Positions 5,032-61,580 of a stretch of 64,000 nt of DNA are shown here, piece by piece; positions within the stretch are counted from its first letter, which is position 1; each line of letters starts with the position of its first letter. A model generated the notes under the pieces. That model was not told the origin of the DNA and ran no database searches. It was given only the letters and a program-made list of their open reading frames with translations. The stretch spans positions 103,314 through 167,313 of the forward strand of contig JBBSVO010000006.1 in NCBI GenBank assembly GCA_038046805.1, read 5' to 3'. A program made the translations under genes and the position numbers. Source of the stretch: Candidatus Micrarchaeota archaeon (lineage in GTDB: Archaea; Micrarchaeota; Micrarchaeia; Anstonellales; Bilamarchaeaceae).

Positions 5032-8000
5032 ATGTCTTTGGTATTATTCGATTCCTGGTTAATGTTGGTCTGGATTTTCATTACATCGTTTATTCCAGGT
5101 GCGTTGCTGGCCATTTCCATTCTTAAGCGCAGTGAACTCAGGCTATTCGAAAAAATATTGATTGGTTTTGGAATCGGATTCTCTCTTCCTCAACTCATTC
5201 CATACCTGCTTTCTTTTGTAGGAATAAAATTCTCATTCGGAATTGCAATTTTATCTACTCTGGTTTTCTATGCAATTGCAATTGCTCTTTTCCTGAAGGA
5301 AAAGCCATTCGAAGGCTTTAAATTCGAGTTTCCAAAACTTAGTGTCGAAGAGCTGAAGAATATCGAAGCACCTGTATGGAGCTGTATTGTCGCAGCAATT
5401 TTGGTTATAATAATGCTTTCTGCATTCGTGCTTCGTATCTCATCCAGCAGCCCCGTATTTTCTGAGCTTGATCCGTATTATTATACCTATGGGGCTCAGC
5501 AGATAGTCACGCTTGGCGAAATGCCTCTTAATGATGAAACTGCATGGTTTGAGGATGTAAACGGTGATGACATCTCGGAGACAAAGGTGGATCACCGTTC
5601 CCATCCAGTTCTTTTGTATATGGAAGCTGCATGGTACTCGTTCTATACAATGGGTGCGGATGCCGCGCAATATGATAATTATCTTTTGGCATTGGTTGCA
5701 GGTGCATACCCGCCAGTGGCAGCTGCCCTTGCATTCTTTTTCCTTTACCTGTTTTTCGCAGCCAATTACCCGCGTCAATTCGCTCTCATAGGAGCTGCAG
5801 TGGCATCATTTGTTCCGATTCTTGTGCTTAAACTTTCATCTGGAGAGATGGAAGTCCAGCCGTATGCATTTTTTGCGCTCGGGTTTTTCCTTTCAGCATA
5901 TGCCTGGGGGGCAAAGGAGAAAAAATTCGAGAATTCACTTCCATTCGCGCTCGTGGCTGCGCTTGGATACATTGCTCTCGCGTTGGGGAGCTCATCCGCA
6001 GTCGTCGGCGTTTCTGCCATGGCTATATTCATCGGAATCCAGTCAATTTTAATGTTCCTAAAATCCCCGGAAACACGTGAAAACTTACTTGATTTTGCAA
6101 AGTTTAATATCGTTATCATCGGAATTGCATTGTTTCTTGTAGCTACAATAATCCATCCCATTTATAGAAACGGAGTCTTCACCTTTGAATATCTTTACAC
6201 CGGTCCTGCTGTTTATATGATAATGGCTCTTGCACCGACTTTGCTGGCATTGGCCCTGTATTATTTGCGCAATATGATAAAGGACATAGAAACAATGTTC
6301 TATACTCTTGGGGGTATTATCCTCTTCGGTATGCTTGTATTTTTCTTTACTCCGCTCAAAACATTTATCTCGCAGGGTGCAATGAGTGGTCTCACAACAG
6401 CCACATTTGACACTGCACTGAAGCGCACTATCGCAGAACAGGGTGCAAGCGGAGCTCTTTTCCAGGGTCAGCTTGGTTTCATGGCAGCCACCCCCCAGGA
6501 AGTCGCGGAAACATTCCTTCCACCATCTATCTTCGGAGATTTGACAAATCTTGCGACTTCCCTTCTTGGAAAGATTTTCGCACCGCTTTCGGTTTTTGCC
6601 AATACGTTGTTCTCGATTATTTTTGCTGTGGTTAATGCACTTTTCAATGCAGGAATCTCCTATGATACAAAAGAAACGAGTCTCTTGCTGGTTATAATAT
6701 CTCTTTCGTTCCTGGGAATTCTTTATTCTGCTTACCGCTCAATTAAGGGAAGCGGTAGTGAGCTGACGCTGTTCGCACTTTATGCCGCGGTTCTCTTTCC
6801 CCCGGCATTGGTTGGCCTTCTCAAAGCCAAATATACAATTTACGTTGGTTTCTTTTTCGCAGGCGCAATCGGACTTGTGTTTGCAGAGATTTTCATCGCA
6901 GGCTCGGCACTTATAAAAAGATTCTATTCCGAGAAAGAAGAGCTCGTGCGGAAATACATTACGGGTCTGTTCGCCTTTCTGTTCCTTTTCGGGCTTTTGT
7001 TTTCCTATCTTCAGTTTACCCACGAAGATTTTTCTTCTTCAATCCTGTATAACTCCTACAAATTGCGTTTCCAGGACAATCCAGCTGCATTCAAGGAAAA
7101 GCTTACCCAGGTATGTAACCAGCTCCAGCTTTCAGGTGGATACGACGCGGAAATATGTGAGGCTGCAAAAGATCCGGTTGCATACGCATCACGTGGAATA
7201 AACTATCAATTTGACCAGAAACTATGTTCAATTACTATTCCGGATAATCCGTTTACTGCTACGGCCTCCGAGCAGCGCGCAATAAGCTTCAAATGCCAGC
7301 GACTTGCAGTATCCTGGATAAACGTCATGGAATGGATTCGCTTTAACACAGAAAAGGACGCGCGCGTAATTTCCTGGTGGGACTATGGCCACTGGCTTAA
7401 TTTCTTTGGCCAGAGAAACGCAGTTATACGAAATGAGCACATCTCATTGAAAATGATCGGCGAAGTTGCAAAAGGATATCTTCATGATACTCCGGAAGAG
7501 CTTGCTGCGTATATGAAATCCCATGATTCAAAATATGCATTGTTTGACGGAGAATTGGTTCTTTCAGGTGGCACAGTTTTTGGCGGAAAATATGGCGCTT
7601 TGAATTACCTTTCGTGTAACGCGATGGGTAAGACGGATGTATCATATAGTCCCGGTACCTCTCCATGCGAACTTGAACAGCTTTGGGAAACAATTTACGT
7701 ACCAAGGACCGGAGGAGTGCAGCAGTGTTATGTGTCTATATCTTCCGGGAAGGCAGGAATTCTTGCGTACAGATTAAAGGTTACACAAAACCCAGACGGA
7801 GGGCTAAATTCAGGTCTTGAGCCAGCTTATTGCGTGAGCGATGTTGTTCTTGCAGATGGCCAGAAGGTGCTTGCGACTTATGAATTAAACCAAAAAGATG
7901 CTGCCGGAAACCTGAAGCTCAACAAGGCAATCCTTCAGCAGAATTATGAAACACAGGATGGTGTTGCTGTAATGTCTGCGTATTACACAAAGGATAAGAT

Positions 8001-8163
8001 ATGGAAGGAAGGCAACTCCACAGTTGATGGCTATTCTGACAGAAAAGGAAAATTCTATGATTCAAACCTTTACAAGGCGTATTTCCTGGAAGACCTTCCG
8101 GGATTCAAACTGGTTTACAAGACTGCTGGAAATGAGATAAAGATATTCAAGCTGGAGGAATAA
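5032..8163 (+). CDS. aglB: Oligosaccharyltransferase AglB (STT3 family)
   Basis: 1043 aa. About 13 N-terminal hydrophobic segments, ELDPYYYTY in the first loop, catalytic WWDYGHW motif, large soluble C-terminal domain. Confidence 0.9.
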   Translation: MSLVLFDSWLMLVWIFITSFIPGALLAISILKRSELRLFEKILIGFGIGFSLPQLIPYLLSFVGIKFSFGIAILSTLVFYAIAIALFLKEKPFEGFKFEFPKLSVEELKNIEAPVWSCIVAAILVIIMLSAFVLRISSSSPVFSELDPYYYTYGAQQIVTLGEMPLNDETAWFEDVNGDDISETKVDHRSHPVLLYMEAAWYSFYTMGADAAQYDNYLLALVAGAYPPVAAALAFFFLYLFFAANYPRQFALIGAAVASFVPILVLKLSSGEMEVQPYAFFALGFFLSAYAWGAKEKKFENSLPFALVAALGYIALALGSSSAVVGVSAMAIFIGIQSILMFLKSPETRENLLDFAKFNIVIIGIALFLVATIIHPIYRNGVFTFEYLYTGPAVYMIMALAPTLLALALYYLRNMIKDIETMFYTLGGIILFGMLVFFFTPLKTFISQGAMSGLTTATFDTALKRTIAEQGASGALFQGQLGFMAATPQEVAETFLPPSIFGDLTNLATSLLGKIFAPLSVFANTLFSIIFAVVNALFNAGISYDTKETSLLLVIISLSFLGILYSAYRSIKGSGSELTLFALYAAVLFPPALVGLLKAKYTIYVGFFFAGAIGLVFAEIFIAGSALIKRFYSEKEELVRKYITGLFAFLFLFGLLFSYLQFTHEDFSSSILYNSYKLRFQDNPAAFKEKLTQVCNQLQLSGGYDAEICEAAKDPVAYASRGINYQFDQKLCSITIPDNPFTATASEQRAISFKCQRLAVSWINVMEWIRFNTEKDARVISWWDYGHWLNFFGQRNAVIRNEHISLKMIGEVAKGYLHDTPEELAAYMKSHDSKYALFDGELVLSGGTVFGGKYGALNYLSCNAMGKTDVSYSPGTSPCELEQLWETIYVPRTGGVQQCYVSISSGKAGILAYRLKVTQNPDGGLNSGLEPAYCVSDVVLADGQKVLATYELNQKDAAGNLKLNKAILQQNYETQDGVAVMSAYYTKDKIWKEGNSTVDGYSDRKGKFYDSNLYKAYFLEDLPGFKLVYKTAGNEIKIFKLEE

Positions 8164-25961: not shown

Positions 25962-26109
25962 TAGCGGGGGATGGATTGACAGCTTCACTGGAAATTTTTG
26001 GTTGCCAGACCAAAGCTTTTGAACCATCGACCTCCGGGTTATGAGCCCGGCGGGAACTATGGTTAGTGCGACCTAAATCGCAAAAATCTCCAAGCTCCCC
26101 CACCCCGCT
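25962..26109 (-). tRNA. Initiator tRNA-Met (CAT) with two non-canonical introns (D-loop and T-loop)
   Basis: Minus strand reads AGCGGGG-TG-GGGG-AGCTTGG...TCCC-G-CCGGG-CTCATAA-CCCGG-AGGTC-GATGG-TTCAA[42 nt]AT-CCATC-CCCCGCT-A. The AGCGGGG acceptor and CCGGG/CCCGG anticodon stem fit the archaeal initiator. Anticodon at 26041-26043. T-loop insert 25977-26018, D-loop insert about 26057-26088. Mature length about 75 nt. Confidence 0.75.
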
Positions 26110-26138
26110 AACGTAAAATGTTATTTGTCCACGAGCAT

Positions 26139-26666
26139 TTAAAAATACGTGAGCGCAAGCGTTCCAAGATATGCGAGCAAAACATATCTCGCAGTTCTTC
26201 CAATCACACAAGCCAGCAAAAACCTTTTCCAATCGATTCCGATACTCCCAGCAGCTATTCCTGCAACATCAAACGCGGGATTAGGAATTGCGGACAAAAC
26301 AAAAATCGCAAAAAAATCATTTTTCCTGATCCATTCCTTCCATTTTTTGAATCGTCCGTCCAATTCTTTCTTTACAATGTTAGATGCCCCGGCGCCAACA
26401 GAATATCCGGTTATTTCTCCAAGTCCAGAACCAATGCCTGCAACAACTCCGACGATATATGGGTTAAGCACTCCTCCAATTGCGATTACTGCCGCCCAAC
26501 CCGGCGCAGGAATAAAAATAAGCGCGGAACTTAATAAAGAAATTACGAATACTCCGGCGTATCCCAGTTCTTTGAGTTTTTCTATATCTGCACTAATATA
26601 CCAAATTGCTGCAATTACAATCAGTGCAAACAGCACCTGAAGTGCTCCTTTCGTTCGCTCATCCAT
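26139..26666 (-). CDS. DedA/YqaA (VTT-domain) membrane protein
   Basis: Start reassigned to the ATG at 26666 (MDERTK...), because the upstream part of the track ORF overlaps tRNA-Ala. Motifs IFIPAPGW, GSGLGEITGY, PNPAFDVAGIAAG. Confidence 0.75.
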   Translation of the reverse strand: MDERTKGALQVLFALIVIAAIWYISADIEKLKELGYAGVFVISLLSSALIFIPAPGWAAVIAIGGVLNPYIVGVVAGIGSGLGEITGYSVGAGASNIVKKELDGRFKKWKEWIRKNDFFAIFVLSAIPNPAFDVAGIAAGSIGIDWKRFLLACVIGRTARYVLLAYLGTLALTYF

Positions 26667-26725
26667 AAGAATTAGTCTCTGCCAGTCTTTTAAAATTGTT
26701 CTGCATCCAAATATTATTCTCATTT

Positions 26726-26842
26726 GGGCTCGTAGCTCAGAAGCAGAGCACTCGCCTTGCACGCGAGGGGCCGAGGGTGCGAGAGCTTTGAAATCACCGA
26801 TTTCAAAATTAGTCGGCAAAGCCGTCTATCCCTCCGAGTCCA
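26726..26842 (+). tRNA. tRNA-Ala (TGC) with a 45-nt T-loop intron
   Basis: GGGCTCG-TA-GCTC-AGAAGCA-GAGC-A-CTCGC-CTTGCAC-GCGAG-GGGCC-GAGGG-TGCGA[45 nt, 26783-26827]AT-CCCTC-CGAGTCC-A. G3:U70 alanine identity pair present. Anticodon at 26758-26760. Confidence 0.75.
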
Positions 26843-26948
26843 TTTTGAAGAAATGGACTGACTTGAACCGCAGTTCAAGCCGAAGTCCATTTTGAAGAAA
26901 TGGACTGACTTGAAAGATTCGTCTTTCAAGCTGAAGTCCAATTTTTTT
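26836..26948 (+). repeat. Tandem ~46-51 nt double-hairpin units that begin inside the tRNA-Ala 3' end
   Basis: GAGTCCATTTTGAAGAAATGGACTGACTTGAA occurs at 26836 and, as GAAGTCC..., at 26882. A third partial GAAGTCCA lies at 26933. Each unit folds as AGTCCATTT/AAATGGACT plus a CTTGAA.../...TTCAAG hairpin. Confidence 0.7.
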
Positions 26949-27093
26949 CTTTGGAAAACAATGCGCATTAACAGCGTTTTTTTGCCCCGCTGTTAATTGC
27001 GGACAAAATTTATGAAACTTTTTCCTCCATCAAAACCTTTTTAACCATTTCGCAGGTATTACCCTCAATTGTTTGAAATTCGGGGTGTGACAA

Positions 27094-27195
27094 ATGAGAC
27101 CGATATACATTGACGAGGACGAAGATATGGACGACGATGACTTTGACGAAGAAGAGTGGGATGAAGAAGGTGGCGAAGAAGACGAAGAATTCTAA
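27094..27195 (+). CDS. Candidate 33-aa highly acidic small ORF
   Basis: ATG preceded by GGGGTGTGA. Translates to MRPIYIDEDEDMDDDDFDEEEWDEEGGEEDEEF and is followed by T-runs. No homology argument is possible from here. Confidence 0.25.
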   Translation: MRPIYIDEDEDMDDDDFDEEEWDEEGGEEDEEF

Positions 27196-27301
27196 TCCTC
27201 ACTGGTGTTTTCATTTTTTGTTTTTTGTTTTTTAAAATCCGAGACGGGGTATTGAAAACCAACTTTTATATTATCTATTATACCTTAGAATATATTATAA
27301 C

Positions 27302-27518
27302 GGGCCCGTGGCGCAGCCTGGATAGCGTAGCAAGGCTTATTAAGTAAGTTTGTTAATAAGCTCTAGAAGCCTTCTAAGCTGACGGTCATGAGTTCAAGCA
27401 CAAGCCTTTTGGATTTCAGAAGCATTAAGACAAACGGCTAGTGTTTACCCAAAATCATGGAGAAGCATAATCAACGCGAAACTTGTGGTGTAAGAAAGAA
27501 CATATCTCATCGGGCCCG
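27302..27518 (+). tRNA. Putative tRNA-Arg (TCT), 217 nt, with two introns (anticodon stem about 36 nt, T-loop 106 nt)
   Basis: GGGCCCG-TG-GCGC-AGCCTGGATA-GCGT-A-GC[27332-27367]AGC-CTTCTAA-GCTGA-CGGTC-ATGAG-TTCAA[27398-27503]AT-CTCAT-CGGGCCC-G. Acceptor, D-arm and T-stem are perfect. Removing both inserts gives 75 nt. The anticodon-arm assignment is the weakest part. Confidence 0.55.
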
Positions 27519-33536: not shown

Positions 33537-34100
33537 CTATTCTAGTGCAACTTCGACGATAGTCTCATATTTGGGTCCTTTTCCAGTGTCTCTTCCAAGA
33601 ATGCTTTGCTTCAGGAAAAATTGGGTTACTTCGAACTCCCCAAAGTCTGCGTTTTTGTATTTTGCCAGAAAATCCAGCAAATTTATCCTTCTTTTTACGC
33701 GAGCAATCGTCAGATGCGGCGTGTTCTCTTCTCTGGGAAATCCGAGTTCGCCTATTCCCTCATTTATTCTATCAGAGAGTTCTTTCAACGAGTTATCCTT
33801 GCTTTTGCAGCCTATCCACACCACGCGAATATAACTCTCGTTCGGAAAAACTCCGACTCCTCTAAGTTTGACTTTTATTCTTTTTGTTTTTGCCGCAATT
33901 TTGAGAAGTGCATTTTCTATCTTTGCAATGTCATCATATCCTATGTCCCCCAGGAATTTCATGGTTATATGCAGATTTTCATCCTCAGTTGGTCTTATAC
34001 TGTCTCCTGCCTTTTCCAATTCTTTTTTTACAGCACGTAACCTATGGTGAATCTCCTTTGGAATATCAATCGCAACAAATCCCCGGAATGATTTTTTCAT
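33537..34100 (-). CDS. thpR: RNA 2',3'-cyclic phosphodiesterase (2H family, ThpR/LigT)
   Basis: 187 aa. Two H-x-T/S motifs (NLHITMKFLG and TPHLTIARV). Confidence 0.85.
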   Translation of the reverse strand: MKKSFRGFVAIDIPKEIHHRLRAVKKELEKAGDSIRPTEDENLHITMKFLGDIGYDDIAKIENALLKIAAKTKRIKVKLRGVGVFPNESYIRVVWIGCKSKDNSLKELSDRINEGIGELGFPREENTPHLTIARVKRRINLLDFLAKYKNADFGEFEVTQFFLKQSILGRDTGKGPKYETIVEVALE

Positions 34101-35756: not shown

Positions 35757-38700
35757 ATGCGTGATTTTGAAACAACTGAAAAGATCGCAGTGCCGGAAAA
35801 GCTCATAGACCAGATCATAGGTCAAGATAAGGCAGTTGAAATAATAAAAAAAGCTGCAAAACAAAAGCGCAATGTCCTTCTCATAGGTCCGCCAGGTACA
35901 GGCAAAAGCATGCTCGCACAGGCAATGGCAGAGCTAATGCCTGCTGAAGAACTGGAGGATGTTCTTACTTATCCAAATCCAAATAATGAGAATCAGCCAC
36001 TTATCAAGGCAGTTAAAACTCATCCTTCACCAGATGAAATAGAAAAGAATAAGGAATACAAAATGCTGTTTCATCCAAAAGAGCTTTTGGATATGAAAAG
36101 AGGAACTACCGGGAAACCCATGCCTTTGATTGGTATGGGAAGAAGAATATTTCGCATGAGCCGAGCCATGGATGATCGCATGGCAGGTGGCGGTTCTAAC
36201 CTCTTCATGTTGATTCTGATTGGTATAATTCTTCTTGCAATAATTTTCTATCTTGATCTTGCAGAAAACATAAAATGGCTTCTTCTGGCGGGAATTTTCG
36301 GTATTGCATTTTTATATATCATTTCAAGTGCTACCCAGGGCTTAAGCCGCAGGTTTATGCCGACAGAAAATGCAAACCCGAAATTAATCATTGATAACAG
36401 CGAGAAATTTACTGCACCATTTATTGATGCTACGGGTGCAAAAGCCGGCGCGCTTCTCGGAGATTGTAAACACGATCCGTTGCAATGTTTTTTCCCATCA
36501 TCTACGACCTATATCGTTAAGGACGAGAAAATCCTTACAGTTGCTTTGAATGAACTTGTTGATAACTTGCTAGCAAAATACCCAGAATTAATTCAAAGAG
36601 ATGAAAAATATGAAGGGTTGATTCTCCCAAAAAACGAGGAGATTTACACTATTGGTTCATTGAACGCAAACACAATACCTGTACGTATTTTATGTGTAAA
36701 TAGAAGACTGCGCACAGGGAAGGTATCCATTGTTAAGACTGGTATCACTCGTTTATTAGTAACCCCGGAACACAAAATATTTTCCGGTGGAAATCTCATA
36801 GAAGCCGAAAAAATTAGGCCAAGTTCACAATTTTCTTTATATTTTAATCCAGTGATAACGAAGGATGACGTCATAAGGACATTTTCAGAACAAGACCAGG
36901 CAGATGCAGTTAACTATTATAAATTCGTAAAAATAAAAGAGTCAAATCCTCCTTTTGGATACAAGAAAATTGCCAAAATAATGGGGATAAAATCAGGACA
37001 GACCCGGTGGTGGAACAACAAAAAATGTAAACCAAAGGCAGTTCAGACAATAGAACGCCTTGAACATCTTGGTTTGCTTCCCTTCGGTGTTAATAATGCG
37101 GTAGCACCAATAGTTGCTAGAGTTTTAGGCACTACCTTTGGGGATGGAGGTATCTTTTCAACTCTCAATGGAATATTTTTATCTTCTTCTGAAGAAGATT
37201 CTCTTAATCAATACGCACAGGATTTAATCTCCATCTTCGGAACGTCTATAGAACATAATTTTGAGCGCCGAATCAGCGGTGTCAATAATACCGGAAGAGT
37301 TGTATGGAACACGAATCGCGATGTCGTTCGTTTCTTCATAGCTCTCGGAGCCCAGGTTGGAAGAAAGAACAAAAACGTTCGAATACCTTCGTGGATTAAT
37401 CTGAGCTCGGAAGTGCAGCAGGAATTTTTCGGAGCTTTTTTAGGGAATGAACTATGTAGTCCAAGATTCTCCAATGACCAGAACAAGATACAGTGTTTTT
37501 GTTTCGGACTTGCCGGAAGTCGTTCATTGGAACAAAATCGAAAAGAGATTTTATCTACTCTTGCCCATTATCTGAATTCTTATGGAATCCAAACCTCCCC
37601 AAACATAAATGAAAACGAATTCAAAAAAGGGAGATATATATGGAGACTGGGAATATCAACAGAAGTTGAGAACTTAATCCGATTTTACCAGCTTATTCCT
37701 ATTCGTTATTCAAATGCAAAGCTATTGAGAGTTCAGGATGCAATAGAACAGGTTTTGGAACGAAAAAAATCAAAATACAAAGACTTCCTACGCATCGGAA
37801 AGAGTGAAAAATATGTTTTGGCCACTCTTCGCGTTTCGGGAAACACACTTCAAAAGATTATTTCGAATGAAAAGTTGGTTTTTGATTCTTCATCTGTGCA
37901 ATTTTCCGGTTATGTCTATAACATAACAACCGAGTCTGGCAATCTTTTCGCAAATGGAATCCTTGCAAGCAATTCGGGAGGTCTCGGCACCCCCCCTCAT
38001 CTCCGTGTCGAATCAGGCGCAGTCCACCGTGCGAACAAAGGGGTTCTTTTCATTGACGAAATCGCATCTCTTAAATGGCACTGGCAGCAGGAACTTCTGA
38101 CTGCAATGCAGGAAAAGAAATATCCAATAACCGGGCAGAGTGAAATGAGCTCCGGAGCTCTTGTTAAAACAGAATCCGTTCCTAGCGATTTTGTTCTAGT
38201 TGCTGCAGGAAATTTACCTGATCTTCAACAGATTCATCCAGCGCTTCGTTCGCGTATAAGAGGTGCCGGCTATGAAGTTTATGTTGAAGACAGCATGGAC
38301 GATACTCCTGAAAATGAAGACGGGCTTATTCAGTTTATAGCTCAGGAGGTCAAGAAAGACGGGAGGATCCCCCACTTTAATCGGGATGCAGTTATTGAAA
38401 TCATTGAGGAAGCGCGGCGCATGTCTGGTCGAAAAAAGAAATTCACCCTGAATCTAAGAGAGCTCGGTGGACTTGTACGTGCCACCGGAGATATTGCGCG
38501 TGAGCGGGGCTCCCGGTTTGTCGAACGCGAACACGTGGCTCTTGCAAAAAAGGTTTTCAGTTCTATAGAAGGCCAGCTCGGAAAGAAATTCGTAGAGCGA
38601 AAAAAGGATTATGAAACATTCATGCATGAGGGTTCTGCAGTTGGAAGGGTAAATGGCCTTGCAGTGCTCGGAGAATCCTCTTCTGGTCTTGTTCTTCCAA

Positions 38701-39254
38701 TTGTTGCTGAAGTTACGCCTGCTTCATCAAAAAGCGAGGGAAAGGTTTTTGCAACAGGAAAGCTTGGAACAATTGCCAAAGAAGCAGTTGAAAACGTTTC
38801 GGCTATCGTAAAAAAGACAATGGGAACGGATATATCAAAAAGCGATATTCACATACAATTCCTTCAAACATACGAGGGCGTGGAAGGAGACAGTGCTTCC
38901 ATTTCCATCGCAGTTTCGGTAATCTCCGCGATGACAGGAATTCCAGTAAAGCAGGATTATGCTCTTACTGGTTCTGTCGACGTACGTGGGGATGTTCTTC
39001 CTGTTGGTGGTGTCACGGCAAAGACCGAGGCCGCAATAGAAACAGGCCTCAAATATGTGCTGGTTCCGAAAATGAATTTTGAGGATATCATTCTTTCGCC
39101 GGATAAAAAAGGAAAAGCAGAAATAATTCCGGTTGCGAATATAATGGAGGTTCTCAGGCATGTTCTTGTTGATTGTCCAGAGAAGGTGAAACTGCTTGAA
39201 TCGATGAAAGCTGGTGGAAACGTCAAATCAAAACAAGGAAAGAAGAGAAGATGA
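35757..39254 (+). CDS. lonB: Archaeal membrane-anchored Lon protease (LonB), interrupted by an intein
   Basis: 1165 aa. Walker A GPPGTGKS, two TM helices, AAA+ Walker B VLFIDEI after the insert, and a C-terminal protease domain with Ser in GDSASISIAVS. The exteins sum to 669 aa, a normal LonB size. Confidence 0.9.
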   Translation: MRDFETTEKIAVPEKLIDQIIGQDKAVEIIKKAAKQKRNVLLIGPPGTGKSMLAQAMAELMPAEELEDVLTYPNPNNENQPLIKAVKTHPSPDEIEKNKEYKMLFHPKELLDMKRGTTGKPMPLIGMGRRIFRMSRAMDDRMAGGGSNLFMLILIGIILLAIIFYLDLAENIKWLLLAGIFGIAFLYIISSATQGLSRRFMPTENANPKLIIDNSEKFTAPFIDATGAKAGALLGDCKHDPLQCFFPSSTTYIVKDEKILTVALNELVDNLLAKYPELIQRDEKYEGLILPKNEEIYTIGSLNANTIPVRILCVNRRLRTGKVSIVKTGITRLLVTPEHKIFSGGNLIEAEKIRPSSQFSLYFNPVITKDDVIRTFSEQDQADAVNYYKFVKIKESNPPFGYKKIAKIMGIKSGQTRWWNNKKCKPKAVQTIERLEHLGLLPFGVNNAVAPIVARVLGTTFGDGGIFSTLNGIFLSSSEEDSLNQYAQDLISIFGTSIEHNFERRISGVNNTGRVVWNTNRDVVRFFIALGAQVGRKNKNVRIPSWINLSSEVQQEFFGAFLGNELCSPRFSNDQNKIQCFCFGLAGSRSLEQNRKEILSTLAHYLNSYGIQTSPNINENEFKKGRYIWRLGISTEVENLIRFYQLIPIRYSNAKLLRVQDAIEQVLERKKSKYKDFLRIGKSEKYVLATLRVSGNTLQKIISNEKLVFDSSSVQFSGYVYNITTESGNLFANGILASNSGGLGTPPHLRVESGAVHRANKGVLFIDEIASLKWHWQQELLTAMQEKKYPITGQSEMSSGALVKTESVPSDFVLVAAGNLPDLQQIHPALRSRIRGAGYEVYVEDSMDDTPENEDGLIQFIAQEVKKDGRIPHFNRDAVIEIIEEARRMSGRKKKFTLNLRELGGLVRATGDIARERGSRFVEREHVALAKKVFSSIEGQLGKKFVERKKDYETFMHEGSAVGRVNGLAVLGESSSGLVLPIVAEVTPASSKSEGKVFATGKLGTIAKEAVENVSAIVKKTMGTDISKSDIHIQFLQTYEGVEGDSASISIAVSVISAMTGIPVKQDYALTGSVDVRGDVLPVGGVTAKTEAAIETGLKYVLVPKMNFEDIILSPDKKGKAEIIPVANIMEVLRHVLVDCPEKVKLLESMKAGGNVKSKQGKKRR
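36486..37973 (+). mobile_element. Intein (496 aa) with LAGLIDADG homing-endonuclease domain in LonB
   Basis: The insert begins with Cys (DPLQ|CFFPSS) and ends ...NGILASN|S, the canonical C1 ... HN/SN+Ser junctions. Internal LAGLIDADG-like blocks VLGTTFGDGG and FFGAFLGNE. Confidence 0.85.
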
Positions 39255-40534: not shown

Positions 40535-40589
40535 AATGTTATAGTGAAAGTTAAAAGGTTAAATAGATTTGGTTGCACTGTTGATTGCT

Positions 40590-40780
40590 GATGTCGGTCC
40601 CTTCTTATAGAAATGGCGGTCGAGAGCCTCGTGAGCGGTCGGCCAACGGCTCTCTGAAGCTTTATCATATACGTCATGCGATTCGGGAGAAATGGTGCCT
40701 GGTTGAGCAGGCCGTAACCCTCTCGTGGTCAGCCGATTCCAATGATATCCGCGTAAGAACCCGGTTCTCAAATATAAGAA
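40590..40780 (+). ncRNA. GC-rich structured segment upstream of the HNH gene (candidate ncRNA or leader)
   Basis: About 57% G+C by hand count over 40621-40740, against about 37% in the next 60 nt. Helices GAGAGCC/GGCTCTC, GCCTG/CAGGC and AGAAC/GTTCT. Neither strand gives protein-like translation. Strand not established. Confidence 0.3.
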
Positions 40781-40797
40781 AAAAACAGCTTCGCTGC

Positions 40798-41175
40798 ATG
40801 AACGACAAAGAGATAAAAAAATTTTTCTCAGCGTTGGAATATGTTGTGCAGACCCACATGAGTCCGATGCCGCAAGTTCTGCGCTGTTCTGCAGATTCTT
40901 GTTCAGGCCGTAAAAATGGAAAATCAAACGGCTGTTGTTTTATTTGCCGGGGAATCCAGGATTTAACAACGCATCACGTAATTCCAAGAGAAGTTGGCGG
41001 AACGGATGACGAGCGCAATCTAATGTCCCTTTGCAGGCCGTGCCACGACACCCTCACAACAATCACCAATGAAATGCAGGATGAGGGGAGAAAGATTGGT
41101 GAAAGCCCCCATTTTGTTGATTACGTTGTCCTGGTGCTTGAGATAAAATCCAGATTAAACGGGAATAAAACATAA
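40798..41175 (+). CDS. Small HNH endonuclease
   Basis: 125 aa from the ATG at 40798. CCFIC...THHVIPREVGG...NLMSLCRPCHD is a CxxC...HH...N...CxxH HNH/zinc motif. Confidence 0.8.
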   Translation: MNDKEIKKFFSALEYVVQTHMSPMPQVLRCSADSCSGRKNGKSNGCCFICRGIQDLTTHHVIPREVGGTDDERNLMSLCRPCHDTLTTITNEMQDEGRKIGESPHFVDYVVLVLEIKSRLNGNKT

Positions 41176-44527: not shown

Positions 44528-44599
44528 GTTATTCCATTCTGATAATCGTCAGATAGCTTTAAAAATGGTTTTAGACACAGTTTATGGTTGGGTGTGATT

Positions 44600-47500
44600 A
44601 TGCCAAATCCGAAACAGATCGTATTGCACGTTAATTCCGGGAAATCTTCGCTTGTGGATATGCATGAATGGATGAGGGCCACTATAAAGAAAGATACAAC
44701 TGATGAGCAATTGAATATACCGGCGACCAAACCAGACGTTTATGATTCGGTTTTTATTGGTTTTATCTATAAGAATCCAAGGGATAATGACGAGATTTGG
44801 GCAAGAGTTTATACTCCGATTTATGATAAGAAGAATGCGTTCACAGGTAATTTTCTTGTAACAGAAGCCCGGCTTTCTGATTTGATTGGTGACAAAAAGA
44901 AAATAGATGCAATAGAAGGGGCCATATTGAATCTTCCCAGTCGTTCAATTGGCGAATTTCGCATGTTGAAGGAGCTGGTATCTCCTCAGCATTCTCTTAA
45001 TGATGACGGGTATGATTCTGGTACGGGCTATAGATTTAGTTACGGGAAAAGTGTGGGACGTGACAAAATAGTTTTCCCAATGGGCCGTGAGCTTAAGCAC
45101 GTTAACGTAGCTGCACAAGAGCCTGTGGATGTCACCGTATCCCGAGCCGGTGTAGCCGCCCCAATCTCTCGAATAGCATTCGATGGCGAGATGTGGACTG
45201 CAAAAAAAGCAGTTAAGGAAATAATTGAAGCTCCCGCAACCGATTTGAGCAAAGTAAATCCAAATGACCAGATTGGGTTTGGCAAGTGGCTGAATGGGCA
45301 GATGAAAGAAAAATTCAGTAATTTTGATTTTTCCAAATTATCCAAGGATGACCAAAAGGAATTGGTGAAGCATGTTTCGAATCTTATTTCGAATAGACTG
45401 CTTGCCAGTCTTGCAAAAGCAGAACCGCCCGCTGCAACAGAAAGACCGCCAGCCACAACCGCGCAGGCGCCTGCTGAAAAACCCAAGAGGGAATTATCCG
45501 AGCGTGAACTTGATAATTTGCTTGATGAATTGGAAGCCCCGGATGCGCTCAAAAAAGCTATTCCAAAACCGAGCGGTTCACCACGAATTGCAGAAAATGT
45601 TGAACTTGCCAGACGCGAGAGCGCTGCCAAAGAGGCGCGTCTCTCCAAAGTAAGCGAACCGGTGCAAGCCCCAGTGTTTCCAACCGAACAGGAATTAAAC
45701 GCAGATATTCGCCAATTTGTCAATTCTTTAGACAGTACAAATCTGGCAACATGGGGTGAAGCAAGCGATGTTGTTGACCATATTCTGGAACAGCGGAAAA
45801 TCACAGTTCCATTGAATTTCGCGCTCAGGGAAGGACTTGAATTATATGCATCGAACGAAATCACGGCTCACACGCAGGACGTGTCACCAGCGGTTATGTA
45901 TGAGTTAGAAGACCTCAAAAACGAAGTAACGAAAGTCGTGAATCGGGTGAAGTTTGACAAGTCCGGCCAGGGTGCAAGCCCGTCCAAAGTAATTAACGAA
46001 GTTTTGCGTCAAAAGAATCTAGGAAAAGATTTTGTTTCCCAGAACGATATGAAAGAACTTTCCAGTTTTGCCGCAAGCGAGCTTGTGCGCAGGCTTAATG
46101 AGGTTGTTGTCACTACAACGAATCCAGAGAGGCTGAAGCCGGAAGTTATGAACTTGATTAAAGGAGACTTACAAATGTTTATTTCAACAGGTAACTATTC
46201 CGAGATTTCTGGTGCTACTCCTGATTCGGTTGTAAGGCTCATTCTCACAAGAAGCATGCGACATCTGGTTAAAACGACTGGTGGCATTACCGGAGCGGAT
46301 ATAAAAGAACTCGAAACATATGTGCAACCCCAGTTAATCGCACGCAGAGCTGAACTCGTTAAGCTGGCCGCAGAAGCACAGTCCCGTTCTCGCGCAGAGA
46401 TCGCTCCAGCTGTCTCAACATCAAGAACGGAATCGAGTCTTCCTCCAACTATTCCCCCATCGGAAGTTTCCGCTCAAAGAGAGGCAGAACGACAACGACA
46501 ATTAGCAGCCGAAGCAGAGAGGAGAAGAACACTGGCACCACCAACTCCCGCACCAGCCGCACCAATAGTTGCGCCAGCAGTTTCCACCCCCATCGTTTCA
46601 TTATCCCGCAAAGCAGTTTCAGTTCAGGATGTCGCCAAATCATTCACCGGAAGCTATACTCCCGGGCAATTGATTGAATTGAACCGCACTTTTGCAGAAG
46701 CGCCGGAAGCGCGGAAATACACATCTGCATATCACGTCGTCTATCAAAAACAAAGCGATGACGGCAGCATGCTTCTTTTCGTAAAGGCGCACGGAGGCGC
46801 ACGGATTTACAGGTATGATATTCCTGCAGGGTTTTTTGATCCATCTTCGGTAACGATTTCGAGTGCGGTTCTACAAAATCTAAAATCTGCAGGTGCATCT
46901 AATTCAGAGGCAGATGCGATTGCGATGATAATGACGAAGTCATTTGTTTCCAACATAGTTACTGGGGAAGTCCAGTCTTTTGTTTATGCCAATGGCGGCA
47001 TGAGCAACACGAATTATCTTTCACTTGGCAAGTCACGCGATGAATATCGTATTCCCAAAGGAACAAGATTCTCAAGGCTTATTACGCCACTTGATTTTGT
47101 AAAGGACTTTTCAGCAGAAGATAAACGAAAATACCTTGCAGAGCCCACAGAGAATCCAGACGATTATGAAGTTCTTGGTACAATGATTGCCGGAACCCGC
47201 GCCATGATTTTTAAAGAGCATAAATCCGCGATGGAATCTGCAATCTCCTCGTACTTAGAAGGTAATCCAGAACCGTTTGCAAAATTGCTTCTTTCCTATG
47301 CAATGGAAGGTCAGGCCACTTCAGCAGTACATATACAGGTTCTTTCGGTTTACTTAATGTACAGGCTTCAGCAGGAAGGACTGATGGATTTCACCGGAAT
47401 CTACGCGAAATTAAACGGAAAGACGATAAAGCCGTTAAAGGATGCGGAAGATATTCTGAAAAGAGCAAGAACCAAATCCGGCGCGCAGGAAGTTTTCGCA

Positions 47501-48433
47501 ATTCTTCAGGAATGGGAGAACAGAAAAGTAATGGGGCTTGGAAAAGAAGGTGCAGTTTCAAAGCTCACGGAAATCCTGAATTACGCAAATGAAAATTTCA
47601 TGGCAGAAAAGCCGCCGAAAGGGTACAGCAGGAGCGGAAAGATTTACCCATACCTAAAGAGCCGTGCAACAAAGAAGGTTGCATCGGAAGTTAATCCGGT
47701 TGATGGAAAGCTCGGGCCGATTACGCTTATGGCATGGATGTTCGTGATGACCGAACCATCTCTGGCAAGGGGGCCGGATAAGGACCCAAGAAAGAATCGC
47801 TTGGAAGCCGAACCTCTCCATGTCGCAGATGTAGCGGTTTTTAAGGAAAAGAGAGATGTAACTACCAAACGAGGGGAAGGATCAACTTATGAATTGAATC
47901 TCCATTTCTTCTCTAAAGGAGGCGATAAGCTTACCGAAGCAGCATATCTCAAATCCCAGGGCCTTACTCGCGATCAAGCACTTTTTATGTATTATGGGCT
48001 GATGCTTGCACGTGATACGATCCCAGGTACAGATGGAAATATGGGTTGGTTCATCATTAATCCGAATAGGAAGGAAAGGCAGGATAAAAATATATTCTAC
48101 ACTGGCTTTTTGGATATGGACCGTGGCAAAATATTCCCAGTAACCTATGAGAAGGATACAGCAATTATTGGGGATAGCCCTATACTTGAAAATGTTCAAT
48201 TTATGACACACATTGATAAAGACAAAAAAGAGATCCACCCCTGGGTTGTTCCTGAAAAACAACCTTGGGAAATGGATCCAGCAGTTGTAAGTAGGTTGTA
48301 TTCTGTCCAGTCAAATAACAACACATTTTTCCTTCCCAATTACGGAACACCATCAAGACCAGATAAAAACGGAAATATTTACCCGGGTTCGTTTATTATT
48401 GGGAATGGTACGATAAAAGATTTGACGAAGTGA
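44600..48433 (+). CDS. Giant ORFan protein (1277 aa from the ATG), no signal peptide
   Basis: Uninterrupted ORF with internal ~65-75-aa helical repeats and Pro/Ala-rich spacers (PPAATERPPATTAQAPAEKP; APPTPAPAAPIVAPAV). No catalytic motif recognised. Confidence 0.7.
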   Translation: MPNPKQIVLHVNSGKSSLVDMHEWMRATIKKDTTDEQLNIPATKPDVYDSVFIGFIYKNPRDNDEIWARVYTPIYDKKNAFTGNFLVTEARLSDLIGDKKKIDAIEGAILNLPSRSIGEFRMLKELVSPQHSLNDDGYDSGTGYRFSYGKSVGRDKIVFPMGRELKHVNVAAQEPVDVTVSRAGVAAPISRIAFDGEMWTAKKAVKEIIEAPATDLSKVNPNDQIGFGKWLNGQMKEKFSNFDFSKLSKDDQKELVKHVSNLISNRLLASLAKAEPPAATERPPATTAQAPAEKPKRELSERELDNLLDELEAPDALKKAIPKPSGSPRIAENVELARRESAAKEARLSKVSEPVQAPVFPTEQELNADIRQFVNSLDSTNLATWGEASDVVDHILEQRKITVPLNFALREGLELYASNEITAHTQDVSPAVMYELEDLKNEVTKVVNRVKFDKSGQGASPSKVINEVLRQKNLGKDFVSQNDMKELSSFAASELVRRLNEVVVTTTNPERLKPEVMNLIKGDLQMFISTGNYSEISGATPDSVVRLILTRSMRHLVKTTGGITGADIKELETYVQPQLIARRAELVKLAAEAQSRSRAEIAPAVSTSRTESSLPPTIPPSEVSAQREAERQRQLAAEAERRRTLAPPTPAPAAPIVAPAVSTPIVSLSRKAVSVQDVAKSFTGSYTPGQLIELNRTFAEAPEARKYTSAYHVVYQKQSDDGSMLLFVKAHGGARIYRYDIPAGFFDPSSVTISSAVLQNLKSAGASNSEADAIAMIMTKSFVSNIVTGEVQSFVYANGGMSNTNYLSLGKSRDEYRIPKGTRFSRLITPLDFVKDFSAEDKRKYLAEPTENPDDYEVLGTMIAGTRAMIFKEHKSAMESAISSYLEGNPEPFAKLLLSYAMEGQATSAVHIQVLSVYLMYRLQQEGLMDFTGIYAKLNGKTIKPLKDAEDILKRARTKSGAQEVFAILQEWENRKVMGLGKEGAVSKLTEILNYANENFMAEKPPKGYSRSGKIYPYLKSRATKKVASEVNPVDGKLGPITLMAWMFVMTEPSLARGPDKDPRKNRLEAEPLHVADVAVFKEKRDVTTKRGEGSTYELNLHFFSKGGDKLTEAAYLKSQGLTRDQALFMYYGLMLARDTIPGTDGNMGWFIINPNRKERQDKNIFYTGFLDMDRGKIFPVTYEKDTAIIGDSPILENVQFMTHIDKDKKEIHPWVVPEKQPWEMDPAVVSRLYSVQSNNNTFFLPNYGTPSRPDKNGNIYPGSFIIGNGTIKDLTK

Positions 48434-48437
48434 TACT

Positions 48438-50075
48438 ATGCCTGAACCAAAATTTAAACAAAGAGATGATCTTGCTTCTGTACAGTTAGAGTTGGCGAAT
48501 GCGTTAAGGCCACTTCTGGAATACAAATCTCTTTCTGCCAGGGAGCTTGGAAGACAGCTTACTATCCTTAGCGAAGTTGTTAAGCGCATGTCCACTTCAG
48601 GTAACCTTGATGAGAACAGTGCGAGTTTCATTGGAAAGACATTACGTCCGATTATAAGCGATTCAAACGTCAGTGAAAATACCCGTGCATATGCACGGTC
48701 TATTTTAATTCCGCTTTCCAGGCCAACACCTGCTGGTGCAAGGGAAGGCGCTGCGGCTGCAGGAGGAGTGGTTAGCGAACTTGATCCATATCGTTACTCT
48801 CTTTTGACCGGGACAGATGCAGCTGCTCAATTTGGAAGAGATTTAGAAAAGATACTCCATTATGAACCAATTATTCAGGGTGCAATAAAACCAACTACTG
48901 ATAAGGGAACCTCATTTACTTTGGCTCCAATCGTTCCTGCAGAGCTTGGAGGGTATTTTGGTTATAATCTGATTAGCGACAAAGGAGACATCGAGACCGC
49001 ACAAAAACTTAGTAATGCTGTTTTAAGGGTTCAAGCCGGACTCGCCGGTCCACGAGAGACTGTGTGGCTGGCAAATCAATTCGCCGGGTCAGATCAGCTA
49101 AAAAAAGAACTTGGGGCAGATACCTTTTCTAAATTTGTTTCTGAACTCAAAAAAGGAAATGTTGATGAGGCGATGAAACTGCTTCCAGAAGGCAATGCAA
49201 TGAAACAATATCTTGGTAAGGTAAAAGAACAAGGCGTTTCTATCGAGGAAAGGTCGGATCGCGAGAGCATTACCTTATATCGTTGGGGCGCAGGAATAAT
49301 CCTCAAATTTGATGAGCAGGAGTACAAACTTTGGCGCAAATTAAATACCCGTACAGAGAGCAATCCTCTTTATGTTGTTATTTTGGCAGTAGGTGTTGGT
49401 TATTCAGATTCAATGTTAAAGTACAATATGGTGAAGACTGAGAGAAGGCCTGGAAAAGAGCCGGTAGTCACCACTACAAAAAAGTCAAAAGAACTGACAG
49501 ACGCATGGTATGAAAAGGGAACACTGGATGTTGCTGGTGCGGTTGGAGTCGGAGCCGTAGCTTCAGTCCTTAAGGTTCATGTGGATGCATATGAGCAGTC
49601 TATTTCCATTACACCTCTCGCACAGTATACTGCTGGTGGTGCGGGTCTTATCGGAGTTCCTTATTTGTTAGACTTTAGGGAAATTAAATTTAAGCGTGGA
49701 ACTACCGGAGAAAAGGATTTTTGGGACATTGAATTAAGAGGGGGTAAAGAGCTAGGGCCAGTTGGAAAAGTTCCGCTGGCAAGGTTACTTTCAGTTGATC
49801 TCGAAGCTGGCTGGGGGATGCTTCAGAACGGAATTGACGGAAAAGTTACTTTATTGGCACGCCCGGGAGAGAGAGTCTGTATTTCCATTTCAGGCAAATT
49901 GGGCAGAGACGATATACGAAAATCTTTCTATGGTGGCGCTGCAGGAGTAAGATTTCCAATCTATGGGCCGTTTGAGGGAGAATTAAGCGGTTTTGTAACT
50001 CAATTTCCATCACCCAAATCCAAAAATCCGTATCTTGAAGCTGGTGGCTGGGCTAACTTAGTTGTTCGTTTCTAA
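48438..50075 (+). CDS. ORFan protein (545 aa) with beta-strand-rich C-terminal half ending in Phe
   Basis: Starts 4 nt after the stop of the giant gene. The C-terminal ~270 aa show alternating hydrophobic/Gly-rich segments and end ...YLEAGGWANLVVRF. Confidence 0.7.
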   Translation: MPEPKFKQRDDLASVQLELANALRPLLEYKSLSARELGRQLTILSEVVKRMSTSGNLDENSASFIGKTLRPIISDSNVSENTRAYARSILIPLSRPTPAGAREGAAAAGGVVSELDPYRYSLLTGTDAAAQFGRDLEKILHYEPIIQGAIKPTTDKGTSFTLAPIVPAELGGYFGYNLISDKGDIETAQKLSNAVLRVQAGLAGPRETVWLANQFAGSDQLKKELGADTFSKFVSELKKGNVDEAMKLLPEGNAMKQYLGKVKEQGVSIEERSDRESITLYRWGAGIILKFDEQEYKLWRKLNTRTESNPLYVVILAVGVGYSDSMLKYNMVKTERRPGKEPVVTTTKKSKELTDAWYEKGTLDVAGAVGVGAVASVLKVHVDAYEQSISITPLAQYTAGGAGLIGVPYLLDFREIKFKRGTTGEKDFWDIELRGGKELGPVGKVPLARLLSVDLEAGWGMLQNGIDGKVTLLARPGERVCISISGKLGRDDIRKSFYGGAAGVRFPIYGPFEGELSGFVTQFPSPKSKNPYLEAGGWANLVVRF

Positions 50076-61175: not shown

Positions 61176-61226
61176 GCAGGGATAGCAATCCGCTTGAACT
61201 GATGTTCAAATCTTGTCATCCCTGCT
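61176..61226 (+). pseudogene. tRNA-Leu fragment (5' 13 nt plus 3' ~22 nt of the adjacent gene)
   Basis: GCAGGGATAGCAA...GTTCAAATCTTG-TCA-TCCCTGC matches both ends of the intact tRNA-Leu 39 nt downstream. D-arm, anticodon arm and variable arm are missing. Confidence 0.7.
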
Positions 61227-61264
61227 TTAGGTATTTATTCGTACCTATCCTAAATTCATACTAC

Positions 61265-61388
61265 TGCAGGGATAGCAAAGCCTGGTCAAATGCGCAGGAC
61301 TTAAGGAGCCTTTTGACTTCTAAGTAGGTCTGTGGTTTCGGAAATCCTGTCGCTTAGTGCGTTCGCAAGTTCAAATCTTGCTCCCTGC
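61265..61388 (+). tRNA. tRNA-Leu (TAA) with canonical 37/38 intron (38 nt)
   Basis: GCAGGGA-TA-GCA...TGC-G-CAGGA-CTTAAG[61305-61342]A-TCCTG, variable arm, then GCAAG-TTCAAAT-CTTGC-TCCCTGC-A. Anticodon at 61301-61303. Mature length 86 nt. Confidence 0.85.
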
Positions 61389-61580
61389 ATTTTGTTTTCA
61401 TCTGAGTTCTTCGGGTTTTTCGTGAGGAAATACCTCATGAACTACCTTCCGTCAGTGAAGGTTCTGACGTAAGATCTATTTAAGCCCTGGCCTGAGGCGA
61501 GTTAGACGATTGCCTAATTAATAGTAGTCCAACGAGTCATGGTGCTTATTTTTAAATCCTTTGAACACTAATATACTTCA

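Follow-up and report, generated by a model that had tools for sequence, protein, structure and literature searches.

Probable bulge-helix-bulge introns in the T-loops of three neighbouring tRNA genes from a Candidatus Micrarchaeota archaeon

Introduction

The closest described counterparts of the tRNA genes considered here are those of ARMAN-2 (Candidatus Micrarchaeum acidiphilum), in which 56% of the tRNA genes are disrupted (Fujishima et al. 2011, PMC3239211). Its pre-tRNA-Cys(GCA) carries a 13-nucleotide (nt) intron at position 59/60 with a relaxed motif of the hBH form, which the recombinant splicing endonuclease EndA of the epsilon2 type cuts in vitro, and its pre-tRNA-Pro(GGG) has T-arm introns at 53/54 and 59/60, with a strict bulge-helix-bulge (BHB) motif at 59/60 (PMC3239211). 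Multi-intron tRNA genes and transposition of introns among tRNAs are also documented for the Thermoproteales (Sugahara 2008, Fujishima 2010; summarised in PMC4033280). Here we analyse a 64-kb stretch of DNA from a Candidatus Micrarchaeota archaeon (hereafter the window), in which three neighbouring genes, encoding the initiator tRNA-Met (iMet), tRNA-Ala and tRNA-Arg, lie between positions 25962 and 27518 and are each interrupted in the T-loop.

The introns of the window share with that of ARMAN-2 tRNA-Cys the phylum, the 59/60 site, a relaxed BHB with the T-stem as its outer helix and, presumably, the class of enzyme. They differ from it in being 42-106 nt long, in residing in iMet, Ala and Arg and in that two of the genes contain a second intron; moreover, in place of an hBH motif, iMet and Ala show both bulges and an inner helix (hBHBh′-like, with mismatches in the central helix), at which cleavage is predicted. 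Compared with ARMAN-2 tRNA-Pro(GGG), the likeness is that of multi-intron tRNAs with a T-loop intron, but in the window the second intron of iMet is found in the D-loop and that of Arg in the anticodon stem, rather than at 53/54, and the T-loop intron of Arg has a 58/59 register. In common with the Thermoproteales, non-canonical intron positions are frequent, a gene can hold as many as three introns, different tRNAs have similar introns and there is a correlation with an EndA of broad specificity; yet these are Crenarchaeota with an (alpha-beta)2 enzyme as opposed to epsilon2, and the evidence for an intron family in DPANN archaea is weakly visible in the window.

Results

Three tRNA genes carry inserts in the T-loop

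An initial annotation of this DNA had reported inserts of 42, 45 and 106 nt between the T-stem strands GATGG/CCATC, GAGGG/CCCTC and ATGAG/CTCAT, and mature tRNAs of 75, 72 and 75 nt. Both sets of values were reproduced and the T-loop interruption of the three neighbouring genes is confirmed, with the addition that iMet and Arg reach these lengths when a second intron, of 31 and 36 nt respectively, is excised as well. The genes and their introns are as follows (splice sites are marked by ^).

25962..26109, minus strand: tRNA-iMet(CAT) gene, 148 nt, two introns, mature length 75 nt
25976..26017, minus strand: T-loop intron of tRNA-iMet, 42 nt, at 59/60, TTCAAA^AGCTTTGG...GAAGCTGTCAA^T
26057..26087, minus strand: D-loop intron of tRNA-iMet, 31 nt, directly before U21, AGCTTGGAG^...^T
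26726..26842, plus strand: tRNA-Ala(TGC) gene, 117 nt, one intron, mature length 72 nt
26784..26828, plus strand: T-loop intron of tRNA-Ala, 45 nt, at 59/60, TGCGAG^AGCTTTG...CAAAGCCGTCTA^T
27302..27518, plus strand: tRNA-Arg(TCT) gene, 217 nt, two introns, mature length 75 nt
27333..27368, plus strand: intron 1 of tRNA-Arg, 36 nt, in the 5′ strand of the anticodon stem, at 29/30 (equal to 28/29, owing to a repeated A)
27398..27503, plus strand: T-loop intron of tRNA-Arg, 106 nt, best placed at 58/59, TTCAA^GCACAAG...AGAACAT^AT

We consider it highly probable that these are three functional, independently transcribed tRNA genes, each with a BHB intron in the T-loop, which would be spliced to tRNAs of 75, 72 and 75 nt. 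When the sequences were spliced in silico, ARAGORN with default settings called Met(CAT), Ala(TGC) and Arg(TCT) at these lengths, all with normal cloverleaves. On the raw window the same program, run with default settings and with its intron options, reported no tRNA, none of the three genes included, and lowering its threshold brought up, of the three, Ala alone, mis-called and unspliced, together with probable false positives inside open reading frames (ORFs). An Rfam search of the whole window at the gathering threshold returned tRNA-Leu(TAA) as the sole hit and none of the three genes; at E <= 10, the only one of them to appear was Ala, as a partial sub-threshold match (5′ part, 25.8 bits). 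A scan of the entire window for the T-arm pattern alone produced about 200 chance matches and no additional tRNA. About 28-37 nt upstream of each gene there is a TTTTAAA/TTTTATA box, and oligo-T tracts are present 3′ of iMet and Ala. A split or permuted tRNA gene was ruled out, as all exons are colinear and contiguous on one strand, spanning 117-217 nt.

Exons are retained and introns turned over in a related locus

The organism of the window is placed in the Micrarchaeota (DPANN) by its PolD: DP1 shares 93% identity with a protein from a metagenome-assembled genome (MAG) named 'Candidatus Micrarchaeota archaeon' and about 55-60% with hundreds of further Micrarchaeota proteins. For comparison we used 80 Micrarchaeota loci obtained by scanning GTDB genomes with a DP1 profile; L001 designates the locus of MAG UBA10214, a close relative whose DP1 is 93% identical to that of the window.

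In L001 all three genes occur in the same order and their mature tRNAs are identical to those of the window. The T-loop inserts, by contrast, differ in length (window/L001: iMet 42/32, Ala 45/49 and Arg 106/90 nt) and their sequences are largely unalignable, and L001 contains two further introns, in the D-loops of Ala (87 nt) and Arg, where the window has none. This combination of identical exons and diverged inserts with preserved helices is, at the level of sequence, the signature of spliced introns and not of pseudogenes, and the comparison shows that such predicted introns turn over quickly between close relatives.

Decaying tRNA pseudogenes, with T-loops broken by insertions and with transcripts left unspliced and unused, would be in keeping with the failure of standard finders to call the three genes, with the imperfect BHB motifs of the window and with the odd features of Ala, namely its T-loop UGCGAGU and a D-loop without GG. 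We regard such decay as very unlikely, since the exons are 100% identical to those of L001 although the inserts have diverged with compensatory changes in their helices, dozens of Micrarchaeota genomes show this architecture, L001, L002 and L005 retain the odd Ala T-loop, and promoter-like boxes are found upstream.

A second alternative, in which group I or group II self-splicing introns or some other kind of mobile element would account for the inserts, has in its favour the group I introns reported in archaea, including Micrarchaeota (PMC6125680). Its probability is close to nil. The inserts measure merely 42-106 nt, and none of the intron families of Rfam matches the region, not even at E <= 10. 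The core of a group I or group II ribozyme (P3-P9 or domains I-VI) typically exceeds 200 nt. No ORF within an insert is conserved with L001, the only overlapping one shifting frame between the two genomes, and both the geometry of the junctions and their covariation fit a BHB.

A BHB at 59/60 recurs in Micrarchaeota tRNA genes

To define the T-loop registers, all divisions of the 7-nt T-loop between two exons were tried. Of 41 distinct tRNA genes with T-loop inserts in the window and the 80 loci, 38 fit best at 59/60 and three at 58/59; the comparison of these predicted junctions shows 59/60 to be the dominant T-loop site across the phylum and 58/59 a minor one. In the 59/60 register positions 54-57 pair with intron positions -6 to -3, and the bulges consist of 58, 59 and i1 on one side and of i-2, i-1 and 60 on the other. 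Genes of this type mostly have four of four central pairs, and the partner strand follows the T-loop: TTCA, the typical case, is accompanied by TGAA or TGGA, TTCG by CGAA and TGCG by CGCA or CGTA.

For a fixed-register alignment we used 36 junctions of the 59/60 type, with 500 column shuffles as the control. The T-stem pairs were the selection criterion and are hence uninformative in this alignment, whereas the central and inner helices were unselected. Altogether 88.9% of the cells were paired vs. 64.6% in the shuffles, and the covariation score of 0.651 (0.188 in the shuffles) was reached by none of the 500. Sliding the 3′ partners by 1 to 3 columns in either direction lowered pairing to 34-54%. 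The central helix was 93.8% paired and included AU to GC and UA to GU or GC changes, and double changes were observed in all six pairs of the inner helix. A BHB with predicted splicing at 59/60 is thereby strongly supported across these 36 T-loop-interrupted Micrarchaeota genes.

For iMet and Ala of the window, 59/60 is the only register that yields a coherent bulge-helix-bulge. The iMet gene reads AGCGGGG...CCCCGCTA on the minus strand, with an anticodon arm CCGGG-CTCATAA-CCCGG and a T-arm GATGG-TTCAAA(42 nt)T-CCATC; identity elements legible in the sequence are A1:U72 and three G-C pairs (G29-G31:C39-C41) at the anticodon-stem base. Around its T-loop intron we find an outer helix of 5 bp formed by the T-stem, a relaxed central helix with two of four pairs (C56-G and A57-U), 3-nt bulges AA^A and AA^T and an inner helix GCTTTG/TGAAGC of 6 bp. 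In L001 the inner helix of iMet is ACTCGG/TTGAGT, a compensatory change, and the central helix has three of four pairs. The position of the second, D-loop intron could be fixed by means of the intron-less D-loops AGCTTGGAGT (L040) and AGCCTGGAGT (L009); its central helix is TTGG/CCAT (3/4) in the window and TTGG/CCAA (4/4) in L001. The iMet orthologue of L040 is free of introns, and that of L009 has a T-loop intron only. A run of five T (ATTTTTG) inside the D-loop intron (26057-26087, minus strand) is conserved, and CTTTTT is seen in many Micrarchaeota introns.

The T-arm of tRNA-Ala is GAGGG-TGCGAG(45 nt)T-CCCTC, and the identity element G3:U70 is present. Its T-loop BHB comprises the 5-bp T-stem as outer helix, a relaxed central helix TGCG/CGTC (3/4), 3-nt bulges AG^A and TA^T and a 6-bp inner helix GCTTTG/CAAAGC, which is replaced in L001 by AAATGC/GCGTTT, again a compensatory change. 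The central helix is complete (4/4) in L002 and L005, with the partners CGCA and CGTA.

Position 55 of the T-loop is near-universally U or pseudouridine. The mature tRNA-Ala(UGC) has G at this position (T-loop UGCGAGU, the same in the three relatives named above), and its 7-nt D-loop AGAAGCA is without the usual G18-G19 pair, possibly having A18 G19, which suggests a co-varied 18:55 elbow contact. We also noticed that a 31-nt sequence, AGTCCATTTTGAAGAAATGGACTGACTTGAA, is directly repeated: it lies at 26837-26867 and again at 26884-26914, and part of it recurs at 26925-26944. The copy at 26837 opens with the last 6 nt of tRNA-Ala, and hairpins are present in every unit. L001 lacks this repeat, which could act in processing or termination or be the scar of a duplication.

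The T-loop intron of tRNA-Arg fits 58/59 best

The initial annotation had assigned all three inserts to one T-loop position (58/59 ± 1). Within ± 1 this holds; the best sites are nevertheless 59/60 for iMet and Ala and 58/59 for Arg. The T-arm of Arg is ATGAG-TTCAA(106 nt)AT-CTCAT. In the 58/59 register G53-C56 pairs with the intron strand GAAC (GTTC/GAAC, 4/4), with bulges AA^G and AT^A, giving a putative hBH-like motif, whereas the 59/60 register leaves only one of four central pairs. The orthologue in L082 has a single intron at 37/38 and an uninterrupted T-loop, its exons being equal to those of the window bar a few positions. Splicing at 58/59 would give a mature tRNA identical to that of L001, with the T-loop TTCAAAT of L082. 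The 3′ end of the intron (...GAACAT^AT) is kept between the window and L001 while the remaining intron has diverged, GUUC/GAAC is formed in the minimum-free-energy fold of the L001 Arg precursor, and the GAAC register is found also in L022, L036 and L087. For these reasons the predicted intron is best placed at 58/59, a rarer register.

Should the Arg intron instead be spliced at 59/60, its motif would be very relaxed, with no more than the T-stem and the 3′ bulge defined. This site is by far the commonest in the T-loop (38 of the 41 genes) and would retain the full 5-bp T-stem as the outer helix. We think this improbable: apart from the single central pair as against four, the window would then have the T-loop TTCAAGT and L001 TTCAAAT, the sole difference between the two mature tRNAs, whereas 58/59 yields TTCAAAT in both, as in L082, and neither the L001 fold nor the register shared by L022, L036 and L087 fits 59/60.

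Intron 1 of the same gene has a central helix GTAG/CTAG (3/4) followed by a 10-bp inner helix, and its exon join GCA^GC restores the anticodon stem GCAGC of the L082 orthologue. Four further ideas on the Arg T-loop intron were rejected. A conserved 20-nt block, ACCCnAAAAnTCATGGAGAAG, is not a coding start, as its reading frame is not kept in L001, nor a C/D-box sRNA, as it has no box C or box D motifs. A nested BHB in the 106-nt intron (an 81-nt candidate) was indistinguishable from chance and not conserved in L001, and a 1-nt sliding of an orthologous intron (59/60 in L002 and L084 vs. 58/59) was dropped because the similarity is not significant (z = 0.6-1.1).

Folding, splicing enzymes and the proposed mechanism

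Several observations weigh against splicing of the three genes as proposed here. The minimum-free-energy folds do not set the bulges exactly as the BHB model requires in any of the three precursors, and the Arg insert folds no better than its shuffles (z = -1.2). The central helix of the iMet T-loop motif has only two of four pairs, and the 58/59 motif of Arg is weak, with an outer helix of 2 bp and no adjacent inner helix. Runs of at least five T within a precursor are expected to terminate archaeal RNA polymerase, so that the T5 run in the iMet D-loop intron might end transcription. No EndA was found in the window or in the examined part of L001 (Pfam on 30 of the 52 non-overlapping window ORFs of at least 90 aa, picked out for the scan; tblastn on the whole window), and the same Pfam scan of 30/52 ORFs revealed no RtcB in the 64-kb window, nor was one seen in that part of L001.

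Inexact thermodynamic placing of the bulges is usual for BHB motifs. It is the comparative data that carry the case for the register. A scan for strict hBHBh′ motifs (4/4 central pairs, helices of at least 2 bp) gave many chance candidates and none at the T-loop junctions; the local motifs are therefore relaxed, and the BHB pattern alone is unspecific. Still, a BHB or relaxed BHB can be drawn at all three junctions, tentatively in the case of Arg, and at 59/60 it is backed by the covariation over 36 genes.

For EndA we searched by tblastn with the three units of the ARMAN-2 epsilon2 enzyme, taking parts of the PDB 4FZ2 sequence as queries. Three-unit ORFs colinear with ARMAN-2 EndA were detected in 28 related loci, in each case a few kb downstream of PolD DP1 (e.g., 396 aa at 10578-11768 in L017), and the loci with EndA include ones with T-loop introns. 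The earlier proposal that non-canonical T-loop introns mark a lineage with a broad-specificity endonuclease agrees with the Micrarchaeota, for which three-unit epsilon2 EndA and 59/60 introns were first described (PMC3239211); as regards an epsilon2-type architecture, it is in line with the ORFs of the related loci, but the window itself contributes no EndA gene. We infer an epsilon2 EndA and RtcB in this genome, the former by analogy with the phylum. A LigT-like 2H phosphoesterase/2′-5′ RNA ligase family protein (PF02834, 1.9e-25) is encoded just downstream of PolD DP2, at 33537-34100 on the minus strand.

According to the mechanism we propose, the T-stem would serve as the outer helix in the precursor, and T-loop positions 54-57 (53-56 in Arg) would form a 4-bp central helix with four nucleotides of the intron that lie shortly before the 3′ splice site. 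Each splice site would then lie 2 nt 3′ of its own central-helix strand, within a 3-nt bulge. A broad-specificity endonuclease, in this phylum the three-unit epsilon2 EndA, would cut both bulges, and an RtcB-type ligase would join the exons into tRNAs of 75, 72 and 75 nt; cleavage and ligation in this organism are predicted on these grounds. The preference for 59/60 may come from the T-stem and the near-universal TTCRA, which would offer introns ending in TGAA-NN a ready exon half of the BHB in any tRNA.

Does the cluster reflect intron spread?

The three T-loop introns in a row had been taken as a sign of spread at a preferred site. We counted T-loop inserts over the 79 tRNA genes that passed the filter in the 80 loci and found them in 39. 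Because about half of the sampled tRNA genes carry such inserts, three of three is expected in ~12% of cases and the cluster itself is unremarkable; what remains of the proposal is modest direct support from the resemblance between the iMet and Ala introns. The alignment of the three introns for shared sequence gave similarity for iMet and Ala and none for Arg.

The iMet and Ala T-loop introns share 5′ AGCTTTG and 3′ AAGC-YGTC-WA (global alignment z = 3.9-4.1; 0 of 300-500 shuffles), and the iMet intron of the window is dissimilar to the iMet introns of L001, L081 and L009, which are mutually alike (z = 4.6-9.9); this hints at a local exchange of introns. The Arg T-loop intron has AGCCTTTTG-A-TTC in common with the canonical intron of tRNA-Leu (z ~3.1-3.8). 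In the phylum as a whole, seven T-loop introns, belonging to four or more different tRNA species, can be aligned with 66% column identity, and a hidden Markov model (HMM) built from them also matches D-loop introns of other genes, including one of the same gene in L013. No match to the HMM of this widespread Micrarchaeota intron family was obtained in the window. These similarities point to a proliferating intron family in Micrarchaeota. The tRNA-Arg(TCT) gene upstream of PolD in L013 (5274-5547), L018, L026 and L077 contains up to three introns (D-loop, 37/38 and T-loop), which share a CCTTTT-NNN-AAAAGG hairpin and a CCAAAAC motif.

A recent local spread of one intron between neighbouring genes, as distinct from the phylum-wide background, could have produced the cluster. 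It would explain the similar ends of the iMet and Ala introns and the unlikeness of the former to its orthologues; the central-helix strand TGTC of the iMet intron matches its own T-loop no better and no worse than that of Ala, and related introns occupy the D-loop, 37/38 and T-loop sites of one L013 gene. Set against this are the 39/79 background, the Arg intron, which has its orthologue in L001 (z = 5.9) and no relation to either of the others, and the presence of all three T-loop introns already in L001, which predates the split; in addition, the similarity rests on ~15 end nucleotides and 15 pairs were compared. We hold local spread to be possible, with the phylum-wide background the likelier source.

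Similarly tentative is the idea that BHB introns are currently mobile in Micrarchaeota, with a family characterised by a CTTTTT-AGG-AAAAAG hairpin and a following CAAAAAC motif that sits at D-loop, 37/38 and T-loop sites in different tRNAs and even within one gene (L013), and that the iMet intron of the window was replaced by, or converted towards, that of Ala, 0.7 kb away.

Other features of the window

The tRNA-Leu(TAA) gene at 61266-61389 (Rfam 45.9 bits) has a canonical 38-nt intron at 37/38. It resembles the T-loop introns in that a tRNA stem forms the outer helix, followed by a 4-bp central helix that takes in loop nucleotides and by 3-nt bulges, and it is likewise slightly relaxed (3/4 central pairs); it differs in lying in the anticodon loop and in being found by Rfam. 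About 40 nt upstream of this intact gene there is a partial tRNA-Leu copy of ~52 nt (61176-61227), made up of the 5′ acceptor and the start of the D-stem, GCAGGGATAGCAA, then TTCAAATCTTG and TCCCTGC, and has the look of a gene shortened by deletion or of an att-like scar left by integration.

Genes near the three tRNAs encode HMG-CoA reductase and both PolD subunits, and tRNA-Arg is located directly upstream of DP1 in the window as in many of the 80 loci. In a Lon-type protease ORF (35757-39254, plus strand, 1165 aa) the AAA+ matches are split between residues 18-70 and ~750-833, an arrangement that one or more inteins, or some other large insertion, could produce. A stand-alone HNH endonuclease ORF of 196 aa is present at 40585-41175 on the plus strand (PF01844, 2e-10). 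For four large ORFs, at 5032-8163, 44588-48433, 48438-50075 and 50184-54128 (1043, 1281, 545 and 1314 aa), Pfam gave nothing at E <= 1e-5; three of the four lie next to one another on the plus strand.

Discussion

T-loop introns are, in our reading, a normal and previously described state of Micrarchaeota tRNA genes, and no new mechanism is needed for them. The genes described here add examples, with comparative evidence from ~40 genes, to the link between epsilon2 EndA and fragmented tRNA genes. If introns do prove mobile in this phylum, 59/60 would be a universal landing pad, since the conserved T-stem and TTCRA already contain what the BHB needs as its exon half, and the intron transposition documented for Thermoproteales would extend to DPANN archaea with a different endonuclease. 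Close pairs such as the window and L001 would then allow gain, loss and replacement to be dated.

The findings also matter for annotation. The three genes, among them the only initiator tRNA seen in the window, are missed by ARAGORN and fall below the Rfam threshold, and Micrarchaeota MAGs annotated with such standard finders therefore appear to be without essential tRNAs.

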